Of a DNA stretch of 64,000 bases, positions 17,774 through 63,582 are shown one piece after another; the first letter of the stretch is position 1, and every line of letters starts with the position of its first letter. The notes under the pieces were generated by a model. It searched no databases and was not told the origin of the DNA. It saw only the letters and a program-made list of their open reading frames with translations. The translations under genes were made by a program, and so were the position numbers. The stretch is from OCS116 cluster bacterium AG-435-F03. GTDB lineage: Bacteria > Pseudomonadota > Alphaproteobacteria > MED-G09. The stretch covers positions 624,893 through 688,892 of the forward strand of contig QCOV01000001.1 of NCBI GenBank assembly GCA_003212795.1. Direction: 5' to 3'.

Positions 17774-17776
17774 AAT

Positions 17777-19840: not shown

Positions 19841-19856
19841 TTAAGCCCCCTTTAAT

Positions 19857-20588
19857 TTATAAACTCATACCACCATCTGATGTGATCATTTGTCCAGTTA
19901 TATAACTAGCTCCATCACTACATAAAAAACATGCGAGCTCTCCCATATCTTCAGGAGTACCCCATCTTCCTAATGGTATTCTTTTAAGTGAGTCATCATA
20001 TCTTTTCTTATTTTTAAAAGTAACCTCAGTTAATTTAGTTGCAACAAATCCTGGAGCGATACCGTTAACTCTTATATTGTTTTCAGCCCAGGCCTCTGCA
20101 AGGGTTTTAATCAAAGTGAGTAATCCACCCTTTGATGCAGAATATGCTGGATTACCTTTTACAGAATGATAGCTAGCTCCAGATCCAATAATTATTATTG
20201 ACCCATTACTTTTAGATAATTTATCTTGAAAAAAAGAACATGAGGCCATTATAGAATTTAAATTTAAATCAACCACTTTCTTAAATGTATCCATTTCAAA
20301 TTCTTTTCTTTTATATGCTACGATACCTTGAGAACAAATTAAGTGATCTAAGTCATTAAACGGTAAATCTAAATTATTTAGATTATCATGATTAGAAAGA
20401 TCCAGTTTTTGATAATTACACTTTTCTATATTTTGAGAAATTCTTTCTTCATAATCTTCAATTGAGTCTCTTGTACCTGTAATACAAACATTCGCATTAT
20501 ATTTGATAAAGCTTTCAGCAATTCCTCTTCCAATTCCACTACTGCCACCTATAACTAAGATGTTTTTATTATCAAAACCTTGAGACAT
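19857..20588 (-). CDS. SDR family oxidoreductase
   Basis: 243 aa with VIGGSSGIGRG and YSASKGG. Confidence 0.85.
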   Translation of the reverse strand: MSQGFDNKNILVIGGSSGIGRGIAESFIKYNANVCITGTRDSIEDYEERISQNIEKCNYQKLDLSNHDNLNNLDLPFNDLDHLICSQGIVAYKRKEFEMDTFKKVVDLNLNSIMASCSFFQDKLSKSNGSIIIIGSGASYHSVKGNPAYSASKGGLLTLIKTLAEAWAENNIRVNGIAPGFVATKLTEVTFKNKKRYDDSLKRIPLGRWGTPEDMGELACFLCSDGASYITGQMITSDGGMSL

Positions 20589-21367
20589 TATGCTGAGTAA
20601 CCACCATCAACAGGGATAGATTGACCGCTTATATAACCAGCATTTTCTGATGCGAGAAAAACTACAGTATCAAATAACTCTTCTGGAGCGCCTGCTCTTC
20701 CAAGCGGGACTTGCTGCATCCATTGATCCAATATTCCACCAGGTGGAGAATCGATTTCTTGAGATAACCCTACAGCAATTAATCCAACAGCAACGCAATT
20801 TGCCCTTATGCCGTTATGACCTTCCTCTCTTGAAATTGCTGTACATAAATGTTGAACACCAGACTTAGGAACAGAAGATAAACCATCTGTGCTTATATAT
20901 TTATGAATAGCGGCTGTAGTTAACGCCGTAATTGATCCTCCTCCTCCTTCTTTTAAGACAGGAACAACAGATCTTAAAACATGATAAAATCCCTTAATAT
21001 CAGTATCTAAAGTTTTATAAACATCTTCTGGATTAGCATCCAATATAGGCATTATGTGAAGAAAAGGACCTGTAGCAAAAACTACAGAATGAATTCTACC
21101 AAATTCTTTCTGACTAGATTTAACGAAGCTTTCAACTTTTGATGCGTCCAAAAGATCTACACTAGACGAAAATCCTTTTTGACCATTTTCCTCAATTTTT
21201 GAAATATTTTCTTTTGCAGCTTCCTCATTATTTAAATATGTAAAAGCTACATCAGTTCCACATTTACTAAGAAGATCAACAATTCCGGAACCTAATCCAC
21301 CTGAACCACCGAATACAATAGCTGCACCATCAGAAAATCTATATTTTGTCATACCCAATTCCTCCAT
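20588..21367 (-). CDS. SDR family oxidoreductase
   Basis: 259 aa with VFGGSGGLGSG. One-nt overlap with the downstream SDR. Confidence 0.8.
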   Translation of the reverse strand: MEELGMTKYRFSDGAAIVFGGSGGLGSGIVDLLSKCGTDVAFTYLNNEEAAKENISKIEENGQKGFSSSVDLLDASKVESFVKSSQKEFGRIHSVVFATGPFLHIMPILDANPEDVYKTLDTDIKGFYHVLRSVVPVLKEGGGGSITALTTAAIHKYISTDGLSSVPKSGVQHLCTAISREEGHNGIRANCVAVGLIAVGLSQEIDSPPGGILDQWMQQVPLGRAGAPEELFDTVVFLASENAGYISGQSIPVDGGYSA

Positions 21368-21519
21368 AATTTATCAAAGCATATTAAACAAAAGCTTAAA
21401 AGATTTATTTAGTATAAATTTGCATAATAATAATTATAAAAAAAACTTTTATAAAACTTTCAATATTGCAAGAAATATTATGCATGCTATTCTGTTTTTG
21501 GTTTTAATGAGGCTTTTAA

Positions 21520-23127
21520 ATGACAAATAAAATTGATTGCGATGCTATTGTTGTTGGCGCTGGTTTTGCTGGACTAGCTTTAATTCATCACTTAAAAAAA
21601 ACAGGTATTTCTGTAAAAGTATTAGATAAAGCTTCTGAAATAGGAGGAACATGGGCATGGAATCGTTATCCAGGAGCAGCTACAGACAGTGAAGGATATT
21701 ACTATTGTTTGACCTTTTCCAAAGAAATTTTGCAAGAATGGACCTGGTCAGAGAGATATCCTGGTTGGGAAGAAACTAATAGATATCTTAATTTTGTAGC
21801 TGATAAATGTGATATGTGGCCTCATATTCAACTTGATACCGAAGTTATAAGTGCAGAATTCAATAAAGAGGATGGTTTATGGATTGTAAAGACCAAAAAT
21901 GATGAAGAGCTAGTTTGTAAATATTTTATAAGTGCTATGGGAATGATCTCTCAACCAGTTATTCCTAGTTTTGATGGAATAGAAAATTTTAATGGCCCAT
22001 GCTTTCATTCCTCAAGGTGGCCTCAAGAAGGTCTAGATTATGATGGAAAGAAAGTGGCTATTGTTGGGTGTGGTGCATCCACAGTACAAATGTTACCAAT
22101 AATGGCTCAGACAGCAGAAAATGTAACAGTTTTTCAGAGAACACCGAATTTTGTTCTACCCGCTATGCAGAAATCAATGACACCTGAATGGGAAAAAGAT
22201 ATCAAAGATAATTATGATGAAATAATCGATAAATGCAGGAACCATGTTTTTGGTATGGCTTTTGATAGCCCTGTAGGTCGTAATGCAGTTGATACGCCTG
22301 AAGACGAGAGAGAGAAAATATTTGAAGACAATTGGAATGGAAGTTTTAGATGGGTTTTTGAAACTTTTGATGATTTGTTAGTAGACCCTGCGGCAAATCA
22401 AATGGCGGCAGATTTTATTATAAAAAAAATGAAAGAAAAAATTAATGATCCTGAAATTGCAGAAATATTAACACCGAAAGGTTATCCTCTATTCGCCAAA
22501 AGACCACCATTAGATCATGGTTTTTATGAGGCATTTAATAGAGAGAATGTCCATCTTGTAGATATCAAAGACAGAGAGCCAATTTCAAAATTTACTGAAA
22601 AAGGAATTAATACAATAAAAAATGAATATGAATTTGATATCATAATTTTAGCTACAGGCTTTCAAGCGTATACAGGGGCTCTTGAAGCTTTTGATATTAT
22701 AGGTCAAAGCGGAAAATCTATTAGAGAAAAATGGGAGCTTGAGTCAAAATCAATTATGGGAGTATGTATTTCTGATTTCCCAAATTTATTTACAATAACA
22801 GGACCTCAAGCACCTTTTGCTAATCTTCCAACCTCTATAGAGCAAAATTGTTTATGGATTTCTGATTGCATAAATAAAATGGAAAAAGAAGGACACAAAA
22901 TTTGTCATCCTCTTTTAGAAGCAGAAGAAGAATGGTCAGCTCACGTTAAAGAAGTGCATGAACAAACTTTGATGAATGTTGGTGACAAAGTAAATTCTTG
23001 GATGATGGGAGCAAATATAGAAAATAGAAAATCCAGAGTATTAATTTATTTTGGAGGTGCTGGAGTATATTATGACAGATTAAGAGAGTCGGTTGATAAT
23101 GATTTTCCAGAACTGACATTTAGTTAA
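21520..23127 (+). CDS. Baeyer-Villiger monooxygenase (type I flavin monooxygenase, cyclohexanone-monooxygenase-like)
   Basis: 535 aa with FAD Rossmann motif VVGAGFAGL, the BVMO fingerprint FNGPCFHSSRWP (FxGxxxHxxxWP) and the NADPH Rossmann motif VGCGASTVQ. Confidence 0.9.
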   Translation: MTNKIDCDAIVVGAGFAGLALIHHLKKTGISVKVLDKASEIGGTWAWNRYPGAATDSEGYYYCLTFSKEILQEWTWSERYPGWEETNRYLNFVADKCDMWPHIQLDTEVISAEFNKEDGLWIVKTKNDEELVCKYFISAMGMISQPVIPSFDGIENFNGPCFHSSRWPQEGLDYDGKKVAIVGCGASTVQMLPIMAQTAENVTVFQRTPNFVLPAMQKSMTPEWEKDIKDNYDEIIDKCRNHVFGMAFDSPVGRNAVDTPEDEREKIFEDNWNGSFRWVFETFDDLLVDPAANQMAADFIIKKMKEKINDPEIAEILTPKGYPLFAKRPPLDHGFYEAFNRENVHLVDIKDREPISKFTEKGINTIKNEYEFDIIILATGFQAYTGALEAFDIIGQSGKSIREKWELESKSIMGVCISDFPNLFTITGPQAPFANLPTSIEQNCLWISDCINKMEKEGHKICHPLLEAEEEWSAHVKEVHEQTLMNVGDKVNSWMMGANIENRKSRVLIYFGGAGVYYDRLRESVDNDFPELTFS

Positions 23128-23134
23128 TTATATA

Positions 23135-24163
23135 TTAATTAACTATCAAATTATTGGAAAAATTTTCATATGCCAGTATTAATGCTGCTTTAATTCCTGA
23201 CGCATCTTTAATTTTTTTATTGGCCTCTTCTGAGGCGGCGTTTCCTGCTTTTACTCTATTCTCTATTCCTTTAAGTATGCAGTAAAGTTTTGTTAACGAA
23301 AATAAACAATAAATATTAAGAAGCTCAATATTAACCATTTTTCCAAACGATTCTTCATAAGATTTAAGAAATTCTGAAGCTGATGGAAGGTCGTATGAAC
23401 TCCACTCCTCACCGATTCCATATAAAACTCCCTTAGGTATTAACCAATTAATCATTTGAAAACTGAGATCAACCTCTGGTTCACCAAAGGCAGATAACTC
23501 CCAATCTAACACGGCTAAACAATTTGAGTCGTCTCCTATAACTAAATTATCTAATTTATAATCCCCATGAATTAAGCATAAGTTGTTATTTTCAGGAGTA
23601 TTTTTGATAATAAAATCATAAATTCTTGAAATGTCTTTATCATGATTATCATCATTAAAAATTTGGCTATACCAGATATTCAAATTTCTTATCATAAAAC
23701 CAGTGTTTTTCTTAAAAGGTATATCTAATTTATCGATATTGTAACTATGTAATCTACCAAGAGTTTTTGCTAAACTTTTGTAAATTTTTCTTCTTTCTTG
23801 AGAATTGTTATTTGGAAGAAAGGGATCTTCATAAATATGACCATCAATATATTGCATGATATAAAAATCTCTACCTATTATTGATTTATCTTCACAAAGT
23901 ATTAGAGGTTTTGGAACGCTAAATTCATTTTTACTAAGACCGGATAACACATGAAATTCTCTATCTAATCTGTGAGCACCTCTAACAAGTTCTCCCTTTG
24001 GTTGAGTTCTTAAAATAAATTTATCACCATTTTCATCTAATAAAATATAAGTTGGATTAGATTGACCATTACCTATTTTTTTAGGTAATTGATTTAATAA
24101 ATTGAATTGATGTTTTTTCAAAAAACCGTCAATTTTTTGGAATTCTTCTTCATCGATAAGCAT
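23135..24163 (-). CDS. phosphotransferase-family kinase (APH/choline-kinase-like fold)
   Basis: 342 aa with catalytic loop HGDYKLDNLV and DWE. The N-terminal nucleotide-binding lobe resembles the APH-like proteins associated with acyl-CoA dehydrogenases. Confidence 0.75.
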   Translation of the reverse strand: MLIDEEEFQKIDGFLKKHQFNLLNQLPKKIGNGQSNPTYILLDENGDKFILRTQPKGELVRGAHRLDREFHVLSGLSKNEFSVPKPLILCEDKSIIGRDFYIMQYIDGHIYEDPFLPNNNSQERRKIYKSLAKTLGRLHSYNIDKLDIPFKKNTGFMIRNLNIWYSQIFNDDNHDKDISRIYDFIIKNTPENNNLCLIHGDYKLDNLVIGDDSNCLAVLDWELSAFGEPEVDLSFQMINWLIPKGVLYGIGEEWSSYDLPSASEFLKSYEESFGKMVNIELLNIYCLFSLTKLYCILKGIENRVKAGNAASEEANKKIKDASGIKAALILAYENFSNNLIVN

Positions 24164-24165
24164 AA

Positions 24166-24618
24166 TTAAGAGTTAAGTGATTTTTTATATTGTTCCTCAA
24201 TATTATCAAAAATTAAACTATATAAAGACTCTAGAAGCTCAACTATTTCAGCTTCTGTGGCACCATCAGCAACAAAATGACTGCACCAAGTAATATCTGT
24301 TTCATTTGATGTGATTTCTCTAAGATTTACGCAAGCAACATAATTCAACATAGGTAAACATGATTTATCCACTATAGAGTAAGTCAAAGATAACCCCTCC
24401 TCATAGCCATCAAGCCTTTCAATAACCTCACCAGGATAAGGGTCCCCTAAATAGACCGCTCTTACATCTCCAATGCTATCAGAGAAAGTATCTGGTAATT
24501 TTACTTCAAGAATATTTTCAGGAAGTAAGGTTTTTATCTCTCCAAAGGCTCTTAGTCTGTCCCAAAAATATTGTTTAGGAACATTAACAATTCTCTGAAC
24601 TTTAGCTTCATTTGGCAT
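24166..24618 (-). CDS. conserved hypothetical ~150-aa protein, paralog A (possibly SRPBCC/Bet v1-like ligand-binding fold)
   Basis: About 45% identical by eye to the 26980-27429 product; shared blocks KRIV.VPK.YFW.RLRAF, GEVIERLDG, IDKSCLP. The fold assignment is a guess. Confidence 0.6.
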   Translation of the reverse strand: MPNEAKVQRIVNVPKQYFWDRLRAFGEIKTLLPENILEVKLPDTFSDSIGDVRAVYLGDPYPGEVIERLDGYEEGLSLTYSIVDKSCLPMLNYVACVNLREITSNETDITWCSHFVADGATEAEIVELLESLYSLIFDNIEEQYKKSLNS

Positions 24619-24648
24619 GGGTTTCTCCTAAACTAATGCTAGTTATTA

Positions 24649-26877
24649 TCAAAATGTTTGAGTAATACTTATGCCCCATGTTCTAGGCTTTCTTGCCATC
24701 CCATATGTCCATGCTGCACCAGCAAAAACATCATAACCAACAGTAAATCCATCCTCTTCAGTTATATTCTTAGCAAAGAAAGCAAAAACTGTATTATTAA
24801 ACTCATAATTCATTGATAAATCTATTAATGTTTGTTCTTTGTTGAATGTTGTTGGAGAGTTTAGCTGAGAAGTATGATGTTCACCAATATGGTGAGCGCT
24901 TGCTCTTACATAGGCTAAACCTGGACCAGCTTCCCATTCATAAGTTAAACCAAGTGTCCAAGTTAAATCTGGGGCTCTTAGAGGTTCTAAATATGTAAAA
25001 TCAGCAGGTGTTCCACTTCCTGTAAAATCAGCAAAAAATTCATCATAACTTGCATCTAAATAACCAACATTTAGGTCAACTGAAAAATTTTGATTTATAA
25101 TTGCATAAAGCTCTAACTCAATACCTTTAAATGAAGCCTCAGCAACATTATCAGTCACAGTAGCTCTTCCTATAGCGGCAAGTGTATCAGGAATATCAAC
25201 ATCCAGTTGCTTATCTTCATACTCCATGTCAAAAATTGCTAAATTAAATCTTAGTCTGTTATCAAGAAGAGTAGATTTAAGGCCAGCTTCTATATTGGTT
25301 ACAGTTTCTGGTTTATATGGCCTAACAGCACTAAATTCATTTCCCCATCTACCATTAAATCCACCACTTCGATAACCTTGAGAGTAACTTAAATAGTATA
25401 ATAAATCATCATTAGCTTGATAGCTAACAGCTACTTTTGGTGTAAATTTAGTCCAATTTTTATCAGCATAAGTATTTATAGCGCTACAATCTGGATATGG
25501 TCCAGGGCCCTGACAAGCATTACTACTTTTTTCTTCATCAATATATCTTCCGCCAACAGTGAGGGTGATTTGTTCATTTATGTCATAATCAGCCTCAAAA
25601 AATACAGCAATACTATCGGTTTCTTGATGCGTATAATTATAAATAGGAACAACTATCAAAGGGTCTTGGGTTGGCACAGCGCCAAATAAATCAAAAAATC
25701 CAATTCTACTTTCCATTGGTATTGTGTATTCGGAGTCCCATTTATAAAGTCCTACAACATAATTTAATGGGCCTTCTAAATCACTAGTAAGTCTAATTTC
25801 ATGACTTGTTTGTTCATACTCAGCATTACGGTCAGTATGATACAGTGTTAGGGGTGTTCCATCCCAATCTTGATCTACCTCTTCATCAGTAGTTTTTCTT
25901 CCCAAAATATAATCTAATTTGTATTTATCAGATAATTGCCATCTTACTTCAAGAATACCTGTAAAACTCTCAAATGAAGCATCTCGTCTTTTTGGTTCGT
26001 TATTGTATACTTTGTAACGATCACCACTTTGAGGAATTCCTAATCCAGGTGAACATTGACCATAAACTGCACACCACCATGTGGTTGATCCGCCAAGATT
26101 TAATGCTGTGTGAGCATCTTGATCTTGCTGCTCATCTGTTAAAGTTAATTCAATTTCTACATTGTCATTAACTGTAAATAGAGAATTAAAGGTAATTTGA
26201 GTGTATTCTTCTCTTCCAAGATCTTTGTTATCTACCAAATTAGTTAAATAGCCTTCAGCTTGCTCTCTATGTGTTCCAGTTATCTTAAAGGCTGCATTAG
26301 GAGTTCCAAAGTTTAGTATACCATCTACGATAGTTGTATCGTAATCGCCATAACCAACTTTGAGTTTTCCTCCAACTTCACCAGTAGGTTTTGTTCTCGT
26401 TAAATTTATTACGCCAGCAACAGTATTTCTTCCAAACAATGTTCCTTGTGGACCTCTTAATATTTCAACACTTTCTAAATCAATAGTTTTAAGCATTGCG
26501 CCAGAATTTGCTCCAACAAATACACCGTCTAAAACAACCCCTGTTGTTGGATCAAAATTTTTCTCCACATCTGAAACACCCACACCTCTGATGAATATTG
26601 CTGTTGGACTTCCTGGTCCCTGTTGAAGATCATCAATTATTAAATTTGGAGACTCACCTGCCAAATCTCTTATATCAGAAGGAAACCTATTCTCAATATC
26701 TCTTGCGCTTAAAGCGCTTACAGAAAGAGCTGTTTCTTGAATGTTCTCTTCCTTTTTACGTGCAGTAACAACAATTTCTTCTATACCTTCAGAGCTTTGA
26801 GCGAAAGATATTGAAGTATATATTGCAGATACAAATATAAAACATGAAATAGCAAAAAAGTTAAAAATAGATCTCAT
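24649..26877 (-). CDS. TonB-dependent outer-membrane receptor
   Basis: Signal peptide MRSIFNFFAISCFIFVSAIYTSISFA, TonB box EEIVVTARK, plug domain, long beta-barrel region and C-terminal Phe. The track ORF begins at a TTG 19 codons upstream; an ATG at 26877 preceded by a G-rich SD is more plausible. Confidence 0.88.
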   Translation of the reverse strand: MRSIFNFFAISCFIFVSAIYTSISFAQSSEGIEEIVVTARKKEENIQETALSVSALSARDIENRFPSDIRDLAGESPNLIIDDLQQGPGSPTAIFIRGVGVSDVEKNFDPTTGVVLDGVFVGANSGAMLKTIDLESVEILRGPQGTLFGRNTVAGVINLTRTKPTGEVGGKLKVGYGDYDTTIVDGILNFGTPNAAFKITGTHREQAEGYLTNLVDNKDLGREEYTQITFNSLFTVNDNVEIELTLTDEQQDQDAHTALNLGGSTTWWCAVYGQCSPGLGIPQSGDRYKVYNNEPKRRDASFESFTGILEVRWQLSDKYKLDYILGRKTTDEEVDQDWDGTPLTLYHTDRNAEYEQTSHEIRLTSDLEGPLNYVVGLYKWDSEYTIPMESRIGFFDLFGAVPTQDPLIVVPIYNYTHQETDSIAVFFEADYDINEQITLTVGGRYIDEEKSSNACQGPGPYPDCSAINTYADKNWTKFTPKVAVSYQANDDLLYYLSYSQGYRSGGFNGRWGNEFSAVRPYKPETVTNIEAGLKSTLLDNRLRFNLAIFDMEYEDKQLDVDIPDTLAAIGRATVTDNVAEASFKGIELELYAIINQNFSVDLNVGYLDASYDEFFADFTGSGTPADFTYLEPLRAPDLTWTLGLTYEWEAGPGLAYVRASAHHIGEHHTSQLNSPTTFNKEQTLIDLSMNYEFNNTVFAFFAKNITEEDGFTVGYDVFAGAAWTYGMARKPRTWGISITQTF

Positions 26878-26979
26878 AATTACCCCCCCAATTGATTTAA
26901 ATATTATGATAGTTGAATAAATGTTTTTTTTCAATAAATTAACAAATTAATGATTTAAATTTTAAGTTAATTAAATATC

Positions 26980-27429
26980 TTAATTACCATCAGAAAATTG
27001 TTTTTCCATGTTGTCACAAATAAGATTATAATTAAACTTAAACATGCTGACTGTTTCTTCTTTATCCTTGTCTTTAGCTTTAAAGTGACCATACCAATCA
27101 ACTTCTGTAAAATCTTGATTTGTGTTTTTAATGCTTACCGTCGAAACATAATTTTCAACAGGTAAACATGATTTATCAATAACGGAATAAGTCATGTATT
27201 TTTCTTCAATCAATCCGTCTAACCTTTCTATAACTTCACCTTGGTAAACTTTTTCAAGATAAACATACCTTACATCACCTGGTGAATTAGAAAAATTATC
27301 TGGAATTTTTACTTCTTTAATCGTTCTAGGTAGAAGCGTTTGAATTTTATCGAAAGCCCTTAATCGCTTCCAAAAATATAATTTTGGTACTTTTACTATT
27401 CTTTTAACATGCGACTGTAAAAATAACAT
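26980..27429 (-). CDS. conserved hypothetical ~150-aa protein, paralog B
   Basis: Paralog of the 24166-24618 product; see that entry. Confidence 0.6.
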   Translation of the reverse strand: MLFLQSHVKRIVKVPKLYFWKRLRAFDKIQTLLPRTIKEVKIPDNFSNSPGDVRYVYLEKVYQGEVIERLDGLIEEKYMTYSVIDKSCLPVENYVSTVSIKNTNQDFTEVDWYGHFKAKDKDKEETVSMFKFNYNLICDNMEKQFSDGN

Positions 27430-27434
27430 TAAAT

Positions 27435-27911
27435 TTACCTTAAAAGAGATCTATAGTTACTACCCCAAAAAACAAGAGGATAACCTTCAATTATTTTTGA
27501 ATCATTAACATCAGCTATCAAAATTGAGTGATCACCAGAATCGATTATTTGATTTTTTGAACAAGATAGCCAACCTATAGAATTCTTTATAACTAAACCC
27601 TGATCAATGGAAATAAACTGATCTTCGTCCAAAATATGATCATTTTTTTGCGCAAGAGTGTTTGCTATATCTCTTTGTTCTTCAGAAAGAAAATTAATTA
27701 TGTAATTATCTAAATTTGTTATTTCTTCATACAAATCTGAATCTTTATCTAAGCACCATAGAATCAAAGGTGGATCTAGTGATAATGAGGTATATGAATT
27801 TACTGTTATACCAAGATTTAAACCATTGGAACCTTTAAAGGTAACTGCTGTTACCCCAGTAGCAAACTTACTAAAAATACTTCTGAGGTCTTTATTTGCT
27901 TCATCAAGCAT
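27435..27911 (-). CDS. flavin reductase-like (FMN-binding split-barrel, HpaC/NADH:flavin oxidoreductase-like)
   Basis: 158 aa. FATGVTAVTFKGSNGLNLGITVNSYTSLSLDPPLILWCL is typical of flavin_reduct-domain proteins. Confidence 0.75.
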   Translation of the reverse strand: MLDEANKDLRSIFSKFATGVTAVTFKGSNGLNLGITVNSYTSLSLDPPLILWCLDKDSDLYEEITNLDNYIINFLSEEQRDIANTLAQKNDHILDEDQFISIDQGLVIKNSIGWLSCSKNQIIDSGDHSILIADVNDSKIIEGYPLVFWGSNYRSLLR

Positions 27912-27915
27912 TAAA

Positions 27916-29175
27916 TTATCTAATAATAACTGGAAGGTGAGAAAAACCTTTTACAAAGCTCGATCTGATTCTAATTGGTTCACCAACAACTTCTATGTTT
28001 TCAAATCTTTTCATTATTTCTTCCCACAGAATTTCTAACTGCATATCAGCTAATCTATTTCCTACACATCTATGAATTCCAAAACCATATGATAAATGGC
28101 TTCTTGGTCTTTTCCTATCAATTATAAAGCTGTTTGGGTTTTCAATTACATCTTCATCTCTGTTTCCTGACACATACCACATTACTACTTTGTCACCTTT
28201 TCTAATTAGTTTTCCTCCCAATTCATAATCTTCAAGAGCAGTTCTTCTCATGTAAGCCAGTGGTGTTTGCCATCTAATGATTTCAGGAACCATAGTTTTA
28301 ATTAAAGAATGATCTTTTCTTAATTTATCATATTGATCAGGATTTTGATTTAAGACCAAAATGCCTCCTGTCATAGAATTTCTTGTTGTATCATTACCTC
28401 CAACTATAAGTAGAATTAAATTACCTAGATACTCCATTGGATCCATATCACGTGTGCTAGGGTTGTGAGCCAGCATAGAAATTAAGTCAGTTTTAGGTTC
28501 AGAGTTAACTCTTTCATTCCATAGTTTAGTAAAATATTGAAGACATTCAAATAACTCTTCTTTTCTTTGCTCTTCTGTTTCAACTATTCCATCGCCAGGT
28601 CTAGCAGTAGAAACATCTGACCATCTTGTTAATTTCATTCTATCTTCAAAAGGAAAATCAAATAAAGTAGCTAGCATTCTTGTTGTTAATTCAATGGAGA
28701 CATCCTCTACCCAATTAAATTCTTTATTTATTGGAAGGTTATCTAAAACCTCGGCTGTTCTCTCTCTAATAAGGTCTTCCATATTAGCAAGATTACTGGG
28801 AGCAACTACAGGATTAACAGCTTTTCTTTGTATATCATGCTTAGGTGGGTCCATCGCAATAAACATAGGTGTAGTGAAATCTTCTTGAGGATCAAATAAA
28901 GTTATAGCTCCTTCTGATGAAAAAACTTTATGATTGGTATCCACACTCATTATATCTTTGTATTTAGTAATTGACCAATAAGGCCCTACATCCTCAACAC
29001 ATGATTCAGCACAATAATGAACTGGGTCCTCTTTTCTTAATCTTTCAAATAATGGAAAAATTGCATCTCCATACATAAAGATGTCAGAGTTTGCCATATC
29101 AATTTTTTCTATGGGTATTGAATAAGGATCCATTTCTGGACTCCAAACATCTGGACGAAGAAGTTCTTTAAGCAT
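27916..29175 (-). CDS. cytochrome P450, CYP153-like (alkane/alkyl hydroxylase family)
   Basis: 419 aa with heme loop FGFGIHRCVGNRLADMQLEILWEE and the N-terminal region EDPVHYCAES...GPYWSITKYKDIMSVDTNHKVFSSE, both matching CYP153 signatures as I remember them. The 3' end overlaps the upstream gene by 8 nt. Confidence 0.8.
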   Translation of the reverse strand: MLKELLRPDVWSPEMDPYSIPIEKIDMANSDIFMYGDAIFPLFERLRKEDPVHYCAESCVEDVGPYWSITKYKDIMSVDTNHKVFSSEGAITLFDPQEDFTTPMFIAMDPPKHDIQRKAVNPVVAPSNLANMEDLIRERTAEVLDNLPINKEFNWVEDVSIELTTRMLATLFDFPFEDRMKLTRWSDVSTARPGDGIVETEEQRKEELFECLQYFTKLWNERVNSEPKTDLISMLAHNPSTRDMDPMEYLGNLILLIVGGNDTTRNSMTGGILVLNQNPDQYDKLRKDHSLIKTMVPEIIRWQTPLAYMRRTALEDYELGGKLIRKGDKVVMWYVSGNRDEDVIENPNSFIIDRKRPRSHLSYGFGIHRCVGNRLADMQLEILWEEIMKRFENIEVVGEPIRIRSSFVKGFSHLPVIIR

Positions 29176-31480
29176 TATTTATAATCCCCCATACTTTTTG
29201 TGCTGTAATTGGCATATTTAGTTTCTTTGTATCAAAACCCTCTAAAGCATTTATGATTGCATTTACATAAGCAGTTGTTGAGGCAACAGTTCCAGCTTCA
29301 CCACAACCTTTAGCTCCCAATAAATTTGTTTTACACTCTGCCTCTTCATTAAAATCAATATTAAAATCAGGAAAATCATCAGCTCTTGGCATTTGATAAT
29401 CCATATAAGAACCATTTAAAAGTTGGCCAGTTTCCTCTTCATATATAGCATGTTCACACATTGCTTGACCTAAACCCTGAACGATACCTCCATGAACTTG
29501 GCCCGCAACTAAAAGAGGATTAATAATTTTTCCAAAATCGTCTGTCGCATGATAATCTATGATATCTATATTTCCTGTATCTTTATCTACCTCTACCTCA
29601 CAAATGTGGCAACCATTTGGATATGTCGGATCTTTATGTTCGTATGAACTAGCACCATCAAGCATTTGAGTATTAGATTGATTTTCTGCAATTTTAGCTA
29701 TTGAAAATAAGTCAATATTTCTGTTAGTGCCTTGTACTTGAAAAAGAGGACCAGATTCAGTTGAATACTCTATTTCGTCTATAGAAGCCTCTAATTCTGC
29801 AGCAGCAATTTCAATTCCCTTTTTCAAAACATCATCTGATGCCTCATTAATGGCACCAGCAGCAAAATACAACGATTTTGATCCACCAGTTCCACCTCCG
29901 CTTGGCAAGTCTTCACTATCACCAAAATGAATAGATACATCTTCAGGGTTAACACCTAATTTTTCAACAACAATTTGTGTCCATGCAGTCTCATGGCCTT
30001 GGCCTGTAGCCATTGTGCCGGTGTAAACATTTACCTTACCCTCACTTGAAACAATTATTCTAGAGTCTTCAGAGCCCTCTCCTTGAGTTCTCTCAACATA
30101 ATATGATACACCGATACCGCGAAGTTTATTTTCATCTATAGATTTTTTTTGTCTTTTTTCGAAATCTTCAAAAGATGAATTTAGCAGTGTCATGTTAGTA
30201 GTTTTATTAAAATCACAACTATCAAAAGGAATAACCGGGTCTGCAGTATTTCCTAAATCAGAAGGTTGAACATAATTCAATTTTCTAATTTCTATTTGTC
30301 CAAGAGACATATCGCGGGCTGCTTGATCAACCAATCTCTCAATAACATAACTTGCTTCAGGTCTACCCGCTCCTCTATAAGCATCAATAGGAACAGTATT
30401 TGTATATACAACTTTTACATTATTAACCATTACAGGAATATTATATACTCCAACATGCATTCCCGCAGCTGCAAGAGTAGGAATAAAAATACCATATTGG
30501 GATAAATAAGCTCCTACAGAAGCTGTTGTCTCCACCTTTACACCAAGAAATTTTCCTTCTTTATCTAAAGCTAAATATGCATCGGTGACATGGTCTCTAC
30601 CTTGTGCATCACTTAAAAAAGACTCTGATCTTGTTGCAGTCCATTTAACAGGTCTTGATAAAATTTTACTAGCATGCATTACAGCTATATATTCAGGAAA
30701 ACACATCATTTTTAAGCCAAATCCACCGCCTACATCTTTTGTAATAACTTGAATATCTTCTTCTTTAATATTAAGCGTATTAGCAAGCCTTTCTCTCATA
30801 GCATGAGGGCCTTGGCTTTCAACATGCATTTTAAATTTTCCATCAGTTTTATTAAATATTGATACTGCAGATCTTGGTTCGATAGGATTAACGACAATCC
30901 TATTATTAATAAGATGAACATGAGAAACATGATGTGCATCTGACTCAACTTTTTTCCATTCCTCATCCGAACCTAAACCCCAATCAACTGCACAATTAGA
31001 CTCAAATTCATCAAATAACTTAGGTGAGTCATTTTCAAGAGCTTTGGCGGTGTCAGAGTTACATGGTAACTCTTCATAATCCACTATTACATTATCAGCA
31101 GCATCGAGAGCTAAATTAACAGTTTCAGCTAGTATGAAAACAACAGGATCTCCGACATGTCTTACCCTATCTGACGCCAATATAGGTCTTTTACTAGCAT
31201 TCATAGGTGATCCATCTTTATTTTGGAGAAAATCAATTACCGACATATGTGTTATACCTGCCTCAGTGAAGGAATCATTTGTAAAAATATCAATTACACC
31301 TGGCATTTTACGAGCACTCTCAACATCAATGTTTAAAATTTTTGCATGAGAATAAGGTGATCTAACAAAAACACCATGGCACATATCTTCAAATTTTATA
31401 TCATCCGTATAATTACCTTCTCCTGTAATTAAACGCGTATCTTCAATCCTAGTAACAGGCTGTCCTACAGCAAACTTCAT
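29168..31480 (-). CDS. xanthine dehydrogenase/aldehyde oxidase/CoxL-family molybdopterin-binding large subunit
   Basis: 770 aa. N-terminus MKFAVGQPVTRIEDTRLITGEGNYTDDI...HGVFVRSPYSHAKI is characteristic of Mo-hydroxylase large subunits, and the Mo-cofactor-binding domains are present throughout. Confidence 0.88.
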   Translation of the reverse strand: MKFAVGQPVTRIEDTRLITGEGNYTDDIKFEDMCHGVFVRSPYSHAKILNIDVESARKMPGVIDIFTNDSFTEAGITHMSVIDFLQNKDGSPMNASKRPILASDRVRHVGDPVVFILAETVNLALDAADNVIVDYEELPCNSDTAKALENDSPKLFDEFESNCAVDWGLGSDEEWKKVESDAHHVSHVHLINNRIVVNPIEPRSAVSIFNKTDGKFKMHVESQGPHAMRERLANTLNIKEEDIQVITKDVGGGFGLKMMCFPEYIAVMHASKILSRPVKWTATRSESFLSDAQGRDHVTDAYLALDKEGKFLGVKVETTASVGAYLSQYGIFIPTLAAAGMHVGVYNIPVMVNNVKVVYTNTVPIDAYRGAGRPEASYVIERLVDQAARDMSLGQIEIRKLNYVQPSDLGNTADPVIPFDSCDFNKTTNMTLLNSSFEDFEKRQKKSIDENKLRGIGVSYYVERTQGEGSEDSRIIVSSEGKVNVYTGTMATGQGHETAWTQIVVEKLGVNPEDVSIHFGDSEDLPSGGGTGGSKSLYFAAGAINEASDDVLKKGIEIAAAELEASIDEIEYSTESGPLFQVQGTNRNIDLFSIAKIAENQSNTQMLDGASSYEHKDPTYPNGCHICEVEVDKDTGNIDIIDYHATDDFGKIINPLLVAGQVHGGIVQGLGQAMCEHAIYEEETGQLLNGSYMDYQMPRADDFPDFNIDFNEEAECKTNLLGAKGCGEAGTVASTTAYVNAIINALEGFDTKKLNMPITAQKVWGIINNA

Positions 31481-31492
31481 TATTTCTCCTAT

Positions 31493-32248
31493 TTAATTTT
31501 TATAACTGGGGTCAATTTTATCTAATTTCCTTAAAAGACCAGGCCACGCAAGTTGGCCTATTCCATCATCAGATGCCATTTGACCTTGTTCAGTAACTAA
31601 TTCAATAACATCAGTTGGAACTTGATTAAGTTTTAAACCACCAGTTAAGGCTTTAATTTGCATGGTGCAGGCTCTTTCAAGAAAAAATAAACGAAGCCAT
31701 GCATCTCCACAAGTAGCACCTGTTGTTAACAAACCATGATTTTTTAAAATTAAACAATGCTTATCCCCAAGATCATTAATCAATCTCTCTCTTTCATCTA
31801 AATTAAGAGCGATACCTTCATAATCATGATATGCACAATCATTTCTTATAACCATTGCATGTTGACTTATAGGCATAAGACCATCTTCTTGTGCCGCAAC
31901 AGCCACTCCATCATTTGAATGCGTATGAATTACAGCATGATTATTTGTTCCTGAGGAATGAACTGCTGAATGAATAGTGAAACCAGCAGCATTAACATTA
32001 TAATTTGTTTCAGAAACCTTATTTCCATCAAGATCAATTTTGACCAGATCAGATGCACAAATTTCGTCAAATAATAAACCATATGGATTAAGTAAGAAGT
32101 GTTCAGGTTCTGAGGGAACACGAACAGATATATGGGTAAAAACAAGATCATCCCAACCATATAAAGCTACTAACCTATATAAAGCTGCAAGCTCTACTCT
32201 TGCGCTCCATTCCTCTTCACTTACTGATTCTCTAATTTGTTTATTCAT
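31493..32248 (-). CDS. class II aldolase/adducin-domain protein
   Basis: 251 aa with metal-binding His cluster (HTHSNDGVAVAAQ...HAMVIRND). Size and pattern fit the FucA/AraD fold. Confidence 0.65.
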   Translation of the reverse strand: MNKQIRESVSEEEWSARVELAALYRLVALYGWDDLVFTHISVRVPSEPEHFLLNPYGLLFDEICASDLVKIDLDGNKVSETNYNVNAAGFTIHSAVHSSGTNNHAVIHTHSNDGVAVAAQEDGLMPISQHAMVIRNDCAYHDYEGIALNLDERERLINDLGDKHCLILKNHGLLTTGATCGDAWLRLFFLERACTMQIKALTGGLKLNQVPTDVIELVTEQGQMASDDGIGQLAWPGLLRKLDKIDPSYKN

Positions 32249-32295
32249 AATCCAATATTACAATCTTTATAAATATAAAACCAGCATTATTAGAA

Positions 32296-33771
32296 TTAGA
32301 CATTGATGATTTTATTTATTGCTTTATTCCAATTTTTTATTATTTCTTCTCTTGTTTGATTTTCCATTTGTGGCAGAAATTCCTTATTTTTATATAAATT
32401 AACATTAAATTCTTTTAAATCATTAATTTCTTGAGAGCCAAGAGCTGATAATGAAGCCGCGCCCAATGCAGTCGCTTCTTGTTCATTTGATTTACTTATT
32501 TTTATGTCACAAATATCAGAGAGATTCTGCATAAACCAGTCATTTTCTGTCATACCTCCATCAACTCTGATACTATTAAGGGGGTTCTCAAATAATTTTT
32601 TAGTATCCTCATTTATGGCATTCATAAGATCATACGTTTGTAAAGAAATAGACTGAACTGATGAGGCTATTATCTCATTTTTGTTGGAATCACGCGTTAA
32701 ACCTGAAATAGTTGCCCGACTATTTGGTTGCCAATGTGGTGCACCTAAACCAGTAAAAGCAGGTACCATTACAATCTCACTATTAATGGAAGTATTTTTA
32801 AGTATATCTTCTAATTCATTAATATTATCAAATACTTGTAGATTATTCTTTAACCAATCTATAATAGCACCAGCCATGAAAATAGAACCCTCAAGAGCAT
32901 AAGCTATCTCTCCATTAATTTTATATGCTACGGTCGATAAAAGGCCATTTTTAGAATATGCAATATTTTTACCTGTATTTAATAAAACAAAGCATCCAGT
33001 ACCATAAGTTGACTTAATATCTCCAAAATTAAAGCATTTTTGTCCAATTGCAGCTGATTGTTGATCTCCTATAACACCATAAATTGGTAATTTCTTTATG
33101 AGAGCCTCTGATTGTCCATAAAAAGCATCAGATTCCAGAACTTCCGGAAGTATTGATTTATTCACTTGAAAAAGATTCAATAAATCATCATCCCATTTTA
33201 ATTCTTCAATATTAAAAAGATTTGTTCTAGCTGCATTTGTAATATCAGTAGCAAAAACTTTACCTTTTGTAAGATGCCAAATAATCCATGAATCTATTGT
33301 TCCTGCACATACTCTATCTTGATTTATGCTTTCTTTAACGCCATCAACATTATTTATTATCCAGGATATCTTAGTTGATGAAAAATACGGGTCTAATAAT
33401 AATCCTGTTTTATTGATAATTAATTCTTCGTAGCCTTTTTCTTTTAAATCTCTACATAAACTCTCTGTTCTTCTGTCTTGCCATACTATTGCGTTATATA
33501 AAGATTTACCGGTTTGTTTATCCCATACAACTACAGTTTCTCTTTGATTAGTAATACCAATTGAACAAATATTATGATTAGGATTATTTTCTATAATTTC
33601 ATTACAACAACTTATAACAGTTCCAATAATCTCTTCGGGATTATGCTCAACCCAACCATTATTAGGGAATACTTGTTCAAAAGATTTCTGACTAGAATCA
33701 ACTTTTTTTCCGTTTAAGTCAAAAAGCATTACTTTTGTAGATGTGGTACCTTGGTCAATTATAAGAAACAT
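32296..33771 (-). CDS. glpK: glycerol kinase (FGGY family)
   Basis: 491 aa colinear with GlpK over its whole length (IIDQGTTSTKVMLFD, GITNQRETVVVWDKQTGKSLYNAIVWQDRRT, TYGTGCF, PAFTGLGAPHW, VDGGMT). Confidence 0.88.
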   Translation of the reverse strand: MFLIIDQGTTSTKVMLFDLNGKKVDSSQKSFEQVFPNNGWVEHNPEEIIGTVISCCNEIIENNPNHNICSIGITNQRETVVVWDKQTGKSLYNAIVWQDRRTESLCRDLKEKGYEELIINKTGLLLDPYFSSTKISWIINNVDGVKESINQDRVCAGTIDSWIIWHLTKGKVFATDITNAARTNLFNIEELKWDDDLLNLFQVNKSILPEVLESDAFYGQSEALIKKLPIYGVIGDQQSAAIGQKCFNFGDIKSTYGTGCFVLLNTGKNIAYSKNGLLSTVAYKINGEIAYALEGSIFMAGAIIDWLKNNLQVFDNINELEDILKNTSINSEIVMVPAFTGLGAPHWQPNSRATISGLTRDSNKNEIIASSVQSISLQTYDLMNAINEDTKKLFENPLNSIRVDGGMTENDWFMQNLSDICDIKISKSNEQEATALGAASLSALGSQEINDLKEFNVNLYKNKEFLPQMENQTREEIIKNWNKAINKIINV

Positions 33772-33773
33772 TT

Positions 33774-34940
33774 TTATTTATGAGAAACAGGAAGTTTTTT
33801 TCTACCCCAAAAAAGAAAGGGGCCTACCCTTTCGCCATCATTAATTAATTTTAAATTAGGAAATCTCTTTTTTAATGCATTAAGAGTAACCTTTGTCTCT
33901 AACCTTGCAAGCTCTCTACCTAAGCAAATGTGAACACCTACACTAAAAGAAATTACTTTACTACCATCTCTAGTCAAATCGAATGTATTTGGATTATCAA
34001 AAATTACAGGATCTCTATTTGCTGCACCATAATGCATCATCACTTTTGAGTTTTTTGGAATTATATTTCCTTCAATATTTACTTCTTTAGAAGTAGTTTT
34101 AAATAATCCTAAAAGAGGTGGATCGTAGCGTAGACTCTCATTTATAGCATTATTGATATCAATTTTATTGCTTACAAAATCTTCCCATAAATTATCTACA
34201 GTCATCATTCTCCATACTAAATTAGAAATCAAAGAAGTAGTTGTCTCATTACCTGCAACAAAAATTTGTATAGTTAAGTTTACAGCTTCATCATTAGATA
34301 AATATTTTGACTTAAGTTTTGCATGAGCAATCCTTGATAAAAGAGTGCTATCTTCTTCTTCTTCTCTTTTTTTTAGTATGAGATCCAATAGATAATCTCT
34401 CATTTGACTCAATTCTTTTTCAAATTTCTGGGGGTCTTCACTACACATTTGTTCCACCGTAGCATCTGCCCAACGCTTAAATTTATGAATGTCATCAATT
34501 GGAATACCTAATATCTCGCAAATAATTATTACTGGTAGTGGAAATGATAAGTTATCATGAATATCCCAAATATCTTTTCCCATAACATCATCAAGGAGTT
34601 CCTCTGCGATTTCTTCTAATCTCTCTTCTAATTTAGCAATTGATCCCATTAAAAAATTCGGTTGTACAATTCTTCTAATCAATGTGTGATGCTCTCCGTC
34701 AGAAAGCACACCATTAGAAGAATCTATAAAGTTAGGTCCATTACCATGACCCTCAATGAAAATATCAGGCTCTCTTAAGGCATAACTAATATCTTCATAT
34801 CTTGATAGTATGTAAAATGGAGGGTCGTACAAATCATAATGGTAGACTCTATTTCCATTTAATAATTTTGAAGCGGATATAGATGGGTCATACATCTCAT
34901 CCTGACTCATTAAATTAACCTTACTGTTGTCTGAATTCAT
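33774..34940 (-). CDS. cytochrome P450
   Basis: 388 aa with heme loop FSVGVHICLGRELARLE and an ETLR-type K-helix (NESLR). Confidence 0.85.
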   Translation of the reverse strand: MNSDNSKVNLMSQDEMYDPSISASKLLNGNRVYHYDLYDPPFYILSRYEDISYALREPDIFIEGHGNGPNFIDSSNGVLSDGEHHTLIRRIVQPNFLMGSIAKLEERLEEIAEELLDDVMGKDIWDIHDNLSFPLPVIIICEILGIPIDDIHKFKRWADATVEQMCSEDPQKFEKELSQMRDYLLDLILKKREEEEDSTLLSRIAHAKLKSKYLSNDEAVNLTIQIFVAGNETTTSLISNLVWRMMTVDNLWEDFVSNKIDINNAINESLRYDPPLLGLFKTTSKEVNIEGNIIPKNSKVMMHYGAANRDPVIFDNPNTFDLTRDGSKVISFSVGVHICLGRELARLETKVTLNALKKRFPNLKLINDGERVGPFLFWGRKKLPVSHK

Positions 34941-35026
34941 TTATTCACCTAAATAGATAAAAACCAAAGATAAAACTTTAGTAATTTAGGTATGAATTAT
35001 CAAGAGGAAGTGATATTTAAAAAAAT

Positions 35027-35794
35027 ATGTCAGATAAAAAAATACATTTTGTTTCAAGTGATAATAAAGCTGCGAAAGAAGCGAAAGATAATCTAGTAAA
35101 AAAATATAAGGATTATTCTGCCCCTGAAGCTGATGTAATTGTTGCGCTTGGAGGTGATGGACTTATGTTACAAACGCTTCATGATAATATTGATGAGGCA
35201 AAGCCTATTTTTGGCATCAATAAAGGGTCTGTTGGTTTCTTAATGAACGATTATAATGATGACGATCTGTTAGAAAGAATTGAATCTGCTACTTTAACAA
35301 AAGTTTACCCTCTTCAAATGACAGTTAAAACTGAGCAGGAAGAAATATCAGCAAAAGCTATTAATGAAGTTTCTCTTTTGAGACAAACATATCAAGCAGC
35401 AAAAATAAAAATTAAGATAGATGATAAAATTCGATTAGAAGAATTAATATGTGATGGTATTTTACTTGCAACACCTGCAGGTAGTACCGCCTATAATTTA
35501 TCTGCTCATGGACCAATACTTCCAATTACTTCAAATTTATTAGCATTAACTCCTATATCAGCATTTAGACCAAGACGATGGAAAGGCGCACTGCTACCTC
35601 ATGATTCAATAGTTGAAATTGAAATATTGGAAAAAAATAAGAGACCGGTAAGTGCTGTTGCAGACAATCTTGAAATAAGAGACATAGAAAGCGTTAAAAT
35701 AATAGAGGATAGAAAAACGGAATTATTTATGCTTTTTGATCCTGAAACAAATCTAGAAGAAAAGATTTTAGAAGAACAATTTACTTACTCTTAA
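35027..35794 (+). CDS. nadK: NAD+ kinase
   Basis: 255 aa with GGDGLML, NEV and [17 protein letters not shown] motifs. Confidence 0.9.
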
Positions 35795-63580: not shown

Positions 63581-63582
63581 AG

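Follow-up and report, generated by a model that had tools for sequence, protein, structure and literature searches.

A glycerol kinase among cytochrome P450s: a probably composite oxidative gene array in a marine OCS116 cluster bacterium

Why does a glycerol kinase gene lie among cytochrome P450 (P450) genes, close to the gene for the large subunit of a molybdenum hydroxylase, in the AT-rich genome of a marine bacterium? The question is raised by a stretch of 64,000 nucleotides of OCS116 cluster bacterium AG-435-F03 (GCA_003212795.1, contig QCOV01000001.1, positions 624,893 to 688,892; here called the window), in which ten genes follow each other on the minus strand. A preliminary description of this DNA had read them as a single unit for the breakdown of glyceryl-ether or similar glycerol-linked lipids, with a P450 hydroxylating the carbon alpha to the ether so that glycerol and a fatty aldehyde are released, the molybdenum enzyme oxidizing the aldehyde, and the kinase phosphorylating the glycerol. 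The comparison with related genomes leads us to lean, at somewhat better than even odds, to a different answer: the run is a real, clade-conserved and evolutionarily composite array, not a purpose-built glyceryl-ether operon. It is best read as an island for the oxidation of aliphatic lipids or hydrocarbons that borders on an inherited glycerol kinase, given the Baeyer-Villiger monooxygenase (BVMO), esterase, alcohol dehydrogenases (ADHs), acyl-CoA ligase, and third P450 that flank it.

In the direction of transcription, the ten open reading frames (ORFs) between 23135 and 34940 encode a first P450 (P450_1), the glycerol kinase GlpK, a class II aldolase/adducin family protein (AldII), the molybdopterin-binding large subunit CoxL, a second P450 (P450_2), a flavin-reductase-like protein (FlavRed), a small protein of the SRPBCC superfamily (SRPBCC_B), a TonB-dependent outer-membrane receptor (TBDR), a paralog of the small protein (SRPBCC_A), and an APH-like kinase (Table 1). 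This is the same-strand order already reported, and Pfam and NCBIfam models upheld the family assignments gene by gene. The count of eleven genes was not borne out, since ten were listed and ten are present, and the interval 24166-34940 assigned to the whole run takes in nine genes only and leaves the APH-like kinase outside. The reported spacing, from an 8-nt overlap (CoxL/P450_2) to a gap of 47 nt (GlpK/AldII), holds if TBDR begins at the TTG at 26934, where the mechanical ORF starts, and fails if it begins at the ATG at 26877, which leaves about 102 nt in front of the gene. Other annotations place the start at this ATG, which comes with a GGGGGG ribosome-binding site (RBS) and a signal peptide ending in AQS, and it is most likely the real one. 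Same-strand gaps have a median of 5 nt within the run and of 13.5 nt elsewhere; the window has about 33% GC and is about 95% coding, and because tight spacing is genome-wide, it is weak evidence for an operon.

The evidence for a composite origin is the distribution of these genes among relatives. Relatives of GlpK were taken as the best 80 in 185,579 species genomes and supplemented with loci from the contexts of SRPBCC, AldII, and P450_1 homologs, so that ten related lineages stand behind the mosaic picture. Among the best 80, only two exceed 50% GlpK identity, L007 ("Rhizobiales LRMED-253," 86%) and L008 ("Rhodobiaceae RS626," 78%), and both have the cluster; near the remaining ones no cluster genes were found except in two Parvibaculum/Parvibaculaceae loci. 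An identical locus is present in GCA_902559135.1, as well as in numerous contigs from marine metagenomes, and 226 blocks of a metagenome collection index the very same GlpK sequence. The lineage, which synteny with Parvibaculum suggests to be an abundant, OCS116/PS1-like one of the Parvibaculales, is thus widespread in ocean metagenomes. The arrangement had been called unprecedented. This stands as far as the literature goes: our search returned no paper describing it, none on CYP153 in the PS1 clade or on alkane P450s in Parvibaculales, and nothing relevant on P450s with TonB receptors in OCS116. It does not stand for genomes, since the search of the gene order that had been proposed shows it again, in varied forms, in at least seven further lineages of marine relatives within one clade.

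Three tiers can be distinguished among these lineages. Tier C (L014, L042, L095, and the P0169 locus; 55 to 65% GC) has the NAD kinase gene (NADK) on the opposite strand, then GlpK, an insert, AldII-CoxL and a TetR gene, and no P450. The insert is a GlcD-like FAD oxidase gene in L014, L042, and L095, the three loci in which TetR follows CoxL, and an opposite-strand LTXXQ gene in P0169. A gene for MoaA, a protein of molybdenum cofactor biosynthesis, lies between NADK and GlpK, near CoxL and in the orientation of NADK, in L095 (3798-4808) and P0169 (4560-5597); MoaA and the TetR after CoxL are both absent from the streamlined low-GC genomes. In tier B (L094, L087, and L089/L090; 33 to 37% GC), the order is GlpK-AldII-CoxL-(luciferase-like monooxygenase)-CYP153A-FlavRed-(TBDR-SRPBCC), followed by BVMO on the opposite strand and then by (SRPBCC)-kinase-SDR-SDR-esterase and further genes, where SDR stands for short-chain dehydrogenase/reductase and parentheses mark variable elements. 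L094 lacks both TBDR and P450_1, and L087 has TBDR-SRPBCC, with BVMO sitting between SRPBCC genes. In tier A, or clade A (the window, L007, L008, L096, and L097; 32 to 33% GC), P450_1 lies between NADK and GlpK, and the tail varies: L007 is without TBDR, L097 has TBDR-SRPBCC immediately after FlavRed, and in L096 SRPBCC_B is followed by an SDR and an iron-containing ADH (Fe-ADH), while genes for TBDR, the kinase, BVMO, and the esterase are all missing from a locus that covers about 2 kb downstream. Through all these rearrangements the pairs AldII-CoxL, CYP153A-FlavRed and, usually, SRPBCC-kinase are kept. The housekeeping flank ThrS-CoA-transferase-Nudix-NADK is equally syntenic across the tiers, so that conservation of order alone cannot be read as functional coupling.

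How could such an array have come together? Three layers may be proposed. The first would be ancestral and vertically inherited, with ThrS-CoA-transferase-Nudix-NADK on one side and GlpK and AldII-CoxL (form II) on the other, as in the high-GC Parvibaculaceae-like genomes, which have no P450 at the locus. The second would have arisen in the low-GC marine relatives by insertion of the CYP153A and FlavRed pair right after CoxL, coupled to it by a gene overlap in the subclade of the window. The third, variable layer would comprise P450_1, TBDR, one or two SRPBCC proteins, and the kinase, together with the flanking BVMO, SDRs, esterase, Fe-ADH, Rieske oxygenase, acyl-CoA ligase, and third P450. 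On the gene orders compared, the NADK-GlpK junction with AldII-CoxL thus appears ancestral and CYP153A with FlavRed a downstream addition, P450_1 appears confined to one subclade, and the tail of TBDR, SRPBCC, and kinase genes appears to have been gained, lost, reshuffled, and recently recombined. A single unit for glycerol-linked lipids is contradicted by these comparisons, as GlpK, AldII, and CoxL adjoin NADK where no P450 is present, P450_1 is found in one subclade only, and the tail varies and recombines.

The kinase at the center of the question is a bona fide GlpK, as had been described, with 619.9 bits on the equivalog model TIGR01311 (cut-off, 590.35), compared to 193 on XylB and 152 on GntK. 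The preliminary description had conceded that its pathway would fall if the protein were another FGGY kinase, such as xylulokinase; with a score above the equivalog cut-off and far lower ones on the other FGGY models, that identity is ruled out. The motifs DQGTTS, NQRET, WQDRRT, DPYFS, GDQQ, TYGTGCF, and DGG, whose residues in Escherichia coli GlpK bind glycerol and ATP, are kept in the alignment to Sinorhizobium meliloti GlpK (4e1j, 501 bits) and 6ude. All catalytic motifs are thus retained in a protein that shares no more than 50% identity with GlpKs outside the clade among the best 80 relatives. Compared to L007 and L008, the ratio of nonsynonymous to synonymous divergence (dN/dS) is 0.12 for GlpK and 0.10 to 0.12 for FlavRed, the SRPBCC proteins, and the kinase, and it is 0.03 to 0.05 for AldII, CoxL, CYP153A, NADK, and ThrS. 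These ratios point to a functional GlpK under purifying selection that is 3 to 4 times more relaxed than on AldII, CoxL, and CYP153A.

If the oldest layer is GlpK with AldII and CoxL, do these three form a module of their own for C3 compounds (glycerol, glyceraldehyde, lactaldehyde, or similar), unrelated to the P450s? The trio is kept from 32% to 65% GC, with AldII directly upstream of CoxL in every locus compared, and the GlcD-like oxidase, the TetR gene, and the two adjacent MoaA genes of tier C would suit such a module, as would the best-scoring curated family for CoxL, the archaeal glyceraldehyde dehydrogenase alpha subunit. However, that score lies below the cut-off (579 versus 790), and AldII does not look like a sugar-phosphate aldolase: it belongs to the PRK07044 subfamily (371.2 bits; cut-off, 207), it stays at 22 to 38 bits on the L-fuculose- and rhamnulose-phosphate aldolase equivalogs, whose cut-offs are 250 to 400, and its nearest solved relatives are of unknown function (3ocr), adducin heads, or decarboxylase/oxygenase-like proteins (NovR and TqaM). 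Furthermore, the opposite-strand gene of P0169 parts GlpK from AldII-CoxL, synteny is equally strong for ThrS, NADK, and the CoA-transferase and is therefore weak evidence by itself, and GlpK evolves 3 to 4 times faster than its two supposed partners. We regard a separate C3 module as unlikely, while noting that it is compatible with the mosaic model.

CoxL, the molybdenum enzyme of the run, deserves closer examination. Its translation has three CoxL domains, the loop AYRGAGR (PIDAYRGAGRPE), and a C-terminal GCGEAG; AYRGAGR is said to go back to King and Weber in 2007 as the definition of form II CoxL. A form I CO dehydrogenase can be rejected, as the motif is not AYXCSFR and TIGR02416 gives 432.6 bits against a cut-off of 991. 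The earlier label of a molybdenum aldehyde-oxidase type did not survive either, with scores of 203 versus 1,180 on PaoC and 256 versus 1,100 on pterin_aldehy; the protein falls nearest to CoxL, Qor, and ketone-dehydrogenase enzymes, its best matches in the PDB being 6-hydroxypseudooxynicotine dehydrogenase (Kdh), mycobacterial CoxL, 4zoh from Sulfolobus tokodaii, and quinoline oxidoreductase (Qor). A regular-expression search of all six frames of the window found no CoxS/CoxM (CGxC-type), ferredoxin, or 4Fe-4S motifs, and the protein thus looks like an orphan form-II large subunit without genes for its small and medium subunits in the window. The stop of CoxL and the start of CYP153A overlap by 8 nt (ATGCTTAA), preceded by a GGGGG RBS, which implies translational coupling of the two genes. 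Genes for a MoxR-like AAA protein and a VWA/CoxE-like protein, accessory factors of CoxL-type enzymes, are found at the end of the window (62729-64000, plus strand), 28 kb from CoxL. To our knowledge, the function of form-II CoxL proteins is an open question in marine microbiology.

P450_2 had been described as CYP153-like, and it proves to be a true CYP153A. Its identity is 66.2% to CYP153A7 (3rwl, 596 bits) and 67.2% to 7ant (610 bits), where the P450 nomenclature rule asks for at least 55% to a named CYP153A, and its translation has the family motifs MFIAMDPP, VGGNDTTRN, HRCVGNRL, and FGIHRCVGNRLA. CYP153A enzymes are terminal (omega) hydroxylases of alkyl chains, and this is the predicted activity of P450_2; we know of no CYP153A that hydroxylates the alpha-carbon of an ether. 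The neighborhood is not that of a canonical CYP153 operon, since no adjacent ferredoxin or ferredoxin reductase was found in the cluster or the window by Fe-S motifs in any frame. Beyond the end of the window, a near-identical contig (L093, 10001-13641) encodes a 2Fe-2S ferredoxin (Fer2) and a 342-amino-acid (aa) Pyr_redox_2 reductase, a candidate pair of redox partners for the P450s. FlavRed lies downstream of CYP153A in every locus with CYP153A. In L089 (4548-5789) and L090 (3600-4841), a luciferase-like flavin-dependent monooxygenase gene lies between CoxL and CYP153A-FlavRed, suggesting that the flavin reductase may originally have been the partner of a two-component flavin monooxygenase and not of the P450.

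Less can be said about P450_1. It has the heme motif FSVGVHICLG and generic similarity to CYP107/109, reaching at most 166 bits with any solved P450, and among the solved P450s it shows no affinity to known O-dealkylating enzymes. In L007, L008, L096, and L097 an ortholog with 71 to 95% identity is found at the corresponding place, and none is present in L087 or L094. A recent duplication of the third P450 of the island was rejected as its origin, the two proteins sharing only 29% identity.

The tail of the run has a history of its own. Relative to L008, most genes have a synonymous divergence (dS) of about 1, compared to 0.34 in TBDR and 0.09 to 0.10 in SRPBCC_A and the kinase, and nucleotide identity leaps from 81-86% to 91-99% exactly at the gap between SRPBCC_B and TBDR (cassette at about 22300-26900). 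Against L007, this segment shows an unusually low identity (73 to 78%). The jump in identity, the low dS, and the divergence from L007 together indicate that recombination has exchanged the tail as a cassette, without involving the genes upstream.

What the cassette encodes can be described at the level of families. SRPBCC_A and SRPBCC_B are 50 to 52% identical; on PF10604 only SRPBCC_A passes (29.4; cut-off, 27.4), and the L096 ortholog of SRPBCC_B is below threshold. An AF2 model of SRPBCC_A (pLDDT 93.8) matches PYL1, XoxI, and YPO0625 in Foldseek with TM scores of 0.75 to 0.83, and on this model the paralogs can confidently be predicted to be ligand binders with the START/Bet v1/PYR-PYL helix-grip fold. 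Their subfamily is narrow, with 35 clusters at an E value of ≤1e-10 among 1.84 billion representatives. TBDR has the plug (PF07715) and barrel (PF00593) domains and reaches no substrate-specific equivalog; the TOL_0244 family gives 29.8 bits against a cut-off of 645. An Rfam scan of 9000-40500 returned tRNAs only and no riboswitch upstream of TBDR, so nothing points to regulation of the B12 or thiamine type.

The last gene of the run encodes a kinase related to ACAD11 (8v3v, 166 bits), 3dxp (161 bits), and 9o56 (100 bits). In the alignment to these three proteins it keeps the beta3 Arg (FILR), the alphaC Glu (DREF), HGDYKLDN, and DWE (LDWELS), motifs whose roles in ACAD10/11 are described in a preprint (PMC13596139). 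Two publications report 4-hydroxyacyl-CoA kinase activity for the ACAD10/ACAD11/LvaA family (PMC12440821, PMC11342911), and the preprint, of 2025-26, reports that Caenorhabditis elegans and human ACAD10 and several prokaryotic homologs phosphorylate chimyl alcohol and 1-acylglycerol (PMC13596139). With two reported substrate classes, 4-hydroxyacyl-CoA and 1-O-alkyl-/1-acyl-glycerols, the substrate of the kinase is ambiguous. No Acyl-CoA_dh gene occurs among the annotations of the window, and the kinase stands alone, without an ACAD domain.

Are these genes at least transcribed together? Promoter-like sites (70 versus 82.8 expected) and terminator-like sites (9 versus 8.7) are at the background level of shuffled AT-rich DNA, and promoter-like sites were therefore used only where they fall inside conserved intergenic blocks. 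The divergent spacer between NADK and P450_1 is nearly invariant in an alignment of five lineages whose coding dS is 0.4 to 1.1, and a conserved block between GlpK and AldII may be an internal promoter or regulatory site. A further promoter-like site lies in the 102-nt gap before TBDR, which is also the recombination breakpoint. From these signals, transcription probably proceeds in at least two, possibly three, units: P450_1-GlpK(-AldII...FlavRed-SRPBCC_B), and TBDR onward. Co-transcription of GlpK with P450_1 in the subclade would then result from where P450_1 landed and not from the need of a pathway.

The background level of these signals, the coding density, the short gaps outside the run, and the equally syntenic housekeeping flanks would also agree with no functional coupling at all, that is, with unrelated genes packed in one direction in a streamlined, little-rearranged genome. 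Against this, genes for oxygenases, dehydrogenases, and proteins that handle lipids are strongly over-represented across about 25 kb, rearrangements have left the pairs CYP153A-FlavRed, AldII-CoxL, and SRPBCC-kinase together, CoxL and CYP153A overlap by 8 nt, and noncoding blocks are conserved, so that we consider mere packing very improbable.

The enriched stretch is an oxidative island of about 25 kb (about 10.2 to 34.9 kb), of which the run is the upstream part. It is delimited by tuf, tRNAs, and a SpoU methylase gene on one side and by NADK, Nudix, the CoA-transferase, and ThrS on the other, and no regulator gene is found within it. The stretch with BVMO, SDRs, esterase, Fe-ADH, and the Rieske oxygenase (14658-23127) is syntenic in L087 and L094, the Rieske protein being an alpha subunit only, and by its families this looks like a classical gene set for ketone/subterminal oxidation. 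Between Fe-ADH and the next SDR there is a 30-codon ORF (about 17681-17773, minus strand), called again at the same place in L096 (18953-19045), which could be either a conserved micro-ORF or an artifact of annotation.

Table 1. Genes and intergenic elements of the oxidative island in the window (positions from the first nucleotide of the window)
Feature	Position	Strand	Description
P450_1	33774-34940	-	Cytochrome P450, 388 aa; family not assignable; only in clade A
GlpK	32296-33771	-	FGGY kinase, 491 aa; 2 nt downstream of P450_1
AldII	31493-32248	-	Class II aldolase/adducin family, 251 aa; PRK07044 subfamily
CoxL	29168-31480	-	Form-II CoxL-type molybdopterin large subunit, 770 aa
P450_2	27916-29175	-	CYP153A-type P450, 419 aa
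FlavRed	27435-27911	-	Flavin-reductase-like (Flavin_Reduct), 158 aa; HpaC/StyB/FerA-like
SRPBCC_B (paralog B)	26980-27429	-	149 aa
TBDR	24649-26934 (mechanical ORF); 24649-26877 (from ATG)	-	TonB-dependent outer-membrane receptor, 742 aa
SRPBCC_A (paralog A)	24166-24618	-	150 aa; weak Polyketide_cyc2 match
APH-like kinase	23135-24163	-	ACAD10/ACAD11/LvaA-type small-molecule kinase, 342 aa
BVMO	21520-23127	+	Type I, 535 aa; fingerprint FNGPCFHSSRWP; opposite strand, breaks the run
Two SDRs, HSL-family esterase (18920-19840), Fe-ADH, SDR, Rieske oxygenase alpha subunit, NMO/FabK-like reductase	14658-21367	-	
tRNA-Thr and SDR of the far island edge	13723-14661 (SDR); far edge as a whole, 10162-14661	+	
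Third P450	11961-13334	+	457 aa
Long-chain acyl-CoA ligase	10162-11892	+	FadD-like
NADK	35027-35794	+	NAD kinase; divergent neighbor, ancestral boundary of the block
NADK/P450_1 divergent spacer	34941-35026	-	About 50 nt near-invariant; promoter-like TTGATA-17-TAAAGT at 35003-34975
GlpK-AldII spacer	32249-32295	-	47 nt, of which about 32 nt form a block conserved throughout clade A
Promoter-like site before TBDR	26906-26934	-	TTGAAA-17-TATCAT (10/12)

What might such an island do? By homology, CYP153A would hydroxylate the terminal methyl of long alkyl chains. TBDR, by analogy with marine alkane degraders, may import an aliphatic substrate of hydrophobic or amphipathic nature, for which the SRPBCC proteins could serve as chaperones or carriers. 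The ADHs and SDRs would oxidize the alcohol, a step that oxidizes the aldehyde would come next, possibly catalyzed by CoxL with Fe-S and FAD partners encoded elsewhere, and the acyl-CoA ligase would feed the product to beta-oxidation. An SDR, BVMO, and the esterase would form a subterminal/ketone branch, the kinase may activate a hydroxylated lipid intermediate, and GlpK would plainly phosphorylate glycerol.

The same genes can be arranged into a route for the catabolism or salvage of glycerol-linked lipids, in which TBDR takes up 1-O-alkyl- or 1-acyl-glycerols, a P450 or the esterase frees glycerol and a fatty aldehyde or acid, the molybdenum enzyme oxidizes the aldehyde, GlpK phosphorylates the glycerol, and the ACAD10-type kinase phosphorylates monoalkyl- or monoacyl-glycerol. 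A genuine GlpK, a kinase with every ACAD10/11 catalytic residue and a reported alkylglycerol activity in its family (PMC13596139), an HSL-family esterase in the island, the lipid-binding fold of the SRPBCC proteins, a distance of only 2 to 9 nt between P450_1 and GlpK in five lineages, and the aldehyde-oxidizing, though below-cut-off, top curated family of CoxL all fit such a route. On the other hand, the position of GlpK is older than every P450 and the kinase, and L096 keeps P450_1-GlpK through FlavRed without kinase, TBDR, or esterase in the roughly 2 kb covered downstream. In addition, the kinase family is reported to act on 4-hydroxyacyl-CoA as well (PMC12440821, PMC11342911). The regiochemistry of CYP153A is omega and not alpha to an ether, P450_1 has no affinity to O-dealkylating P450s, and P450 cleavage of alkylglycerols by bacteria was not found in the literature. 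Salvage of glycerol-linked lipids in this broad sense therefore has a low probability in our view. The glyceryl-ether pathway first proposed is chemically coherent, and the ACAD10-type kinase and the HSL-type esterase lend it support that had not been expected, but we hold it to be improbable. Quite improbable is a dedicated scavenging island, in which a P450 cleaves the ether or hydroxylates the chain, the kinase is a bacterial alkylglycerol kinase, GlpK captures the glycerol, and CoxL is a fatty-aldehyde (or glyceraldehyde) oxidase.

The composite reading of the array as an aliphatic-lipid/hydrocarbon oxidation island has to face several observations that weigh against it. The transcription units on which it draws are inferred. 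The block GlpK-AldII-CoxL-CYP153A-FlavRed is unbroken in the low-GC lineages sampled, at saturated dS (L089/L090 with the monooxygenase insert), and such contiguity might be owed to selection for co-expression and not to inertia, while the coupling of CoxL to CYP153A suggests a real functional link. There is no ferredoxin or ferredoxin reductase in the cluster, and the nearest pair of this kind is about 30 kb off, on the near-identical contig; with CoxS and CoxM missing as well, CYP153A and CoxL are left without visible redox partners. Finally, one island combines GlpK with an HSL-type esterase and with a kinase whose family reportedly acts on alkyl- and acyl-glycerols, which is in keeping with a glycerolipid theme.

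In the marine turnover of alkanes and lipids, CYP153A-type enzymes have a central part. If the coupling of CoxL and CYP153A is functional, it offers a testable handle on the role of form-II CoxL and on the substrates of TonB import in streamlined heterotrophs; if it is only inherited synteny, the locus shows how the gene order of a streamlined genome can mimic operons. In this island, moreover, a bacterial kinase of the ACAD10/LvaA type is found in a setting of lipid oxidation and lacks the dehydrogenase that usually accompanies it, and if scavenging of glycerol-linked lipids were true, it would assign a first physiological function to form-II CoxL. Expression of TBDR, coxL (K03520), and fmo genes has been reported for the genus AG-430-B22 of the OCS116 clade (PMC13096325, PMC13488336), and a link to the organism of the window is a lead only.

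How does the array compare with characterized systems? The chemistry first proposed for it, with alpha-hydroxylation, aldehyde oxidation, and release of glycerol, is that of ether-lipid cleavage in animals by alkylglycerol monooxygenase and fatty aldehyde dehydrogenase. The animal enzymes are a tetrahydrobiopterin-dependent membrane di-iron hydroxylase and an NAD-dependent aldehyde dehydrogenase, families entirely different from those found here, and homology implies such an activity for no gene of the array. The subterminal alkane/ketone modules of ADH, BVMO, and esterase with TonB uptake are closer. In Thalassolituus oleivorans, TBDR, BVMO, and esterase are implicated in alkane use (PMC6304351), and here a type I BVMO, an HSL esterase, SDRs, Fe-ADH, and TBDR likewise share one island. 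However, this TBDR is not of the TOL_0244 family, and the SRPBCC proteins and the ACAD10-type kinase are extra.

Canonical CYP153 operons, with the order ferredoxin reductase-CYP153-ferredoxin and often an AraC regulator (CYP153A7 of Sphingopyxis and CYP153A33 of Marinobacter), resemble the array in the P450 itself (66 to 67% identity), nearby ADHs, and an acyl-CoA ligase, and differ in that here ferredoxin, reductase, and regulator are missing, CYP153A is coupled to an orphan CoxL, and FlavRed always follows. With the kinase domains of ACAD10/ACAD11 and LvaA of Pseudomonas putida, the last gene has all catalytic residues in common, and it aligns strongly to the ACAD11 kinase domain; unlike them, it is stand-alone, with no fused or adjacent ACAD (LvaC) or HAD phosphatase, and its usual partner is an SRPBCC protein. 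The form II (BMS-type) coxSLM clusters of marine Alphaproteobacteria agree with CoxL in AYRGAGR and the three CoxL domains, and MoxR-like AAA and VWA/CoxE genes are present 28 kb off, whereas here the large subunit is alone in 64 kb and has AldII and, in the low-GC clade, CYP153A as constant neighbors. All parts of the array thus come from known families. What is unusual is their combination: a CYP153A that has no ferredoxin or ferredoxin reductase gene beside it, is coupled in translation to an orphan CoxL of form II, and is constantly accompanied by a flavin reductase, and an ACAD10/LvaA-type kinase paired with an SRPBCC protein rather than with an ACAD.

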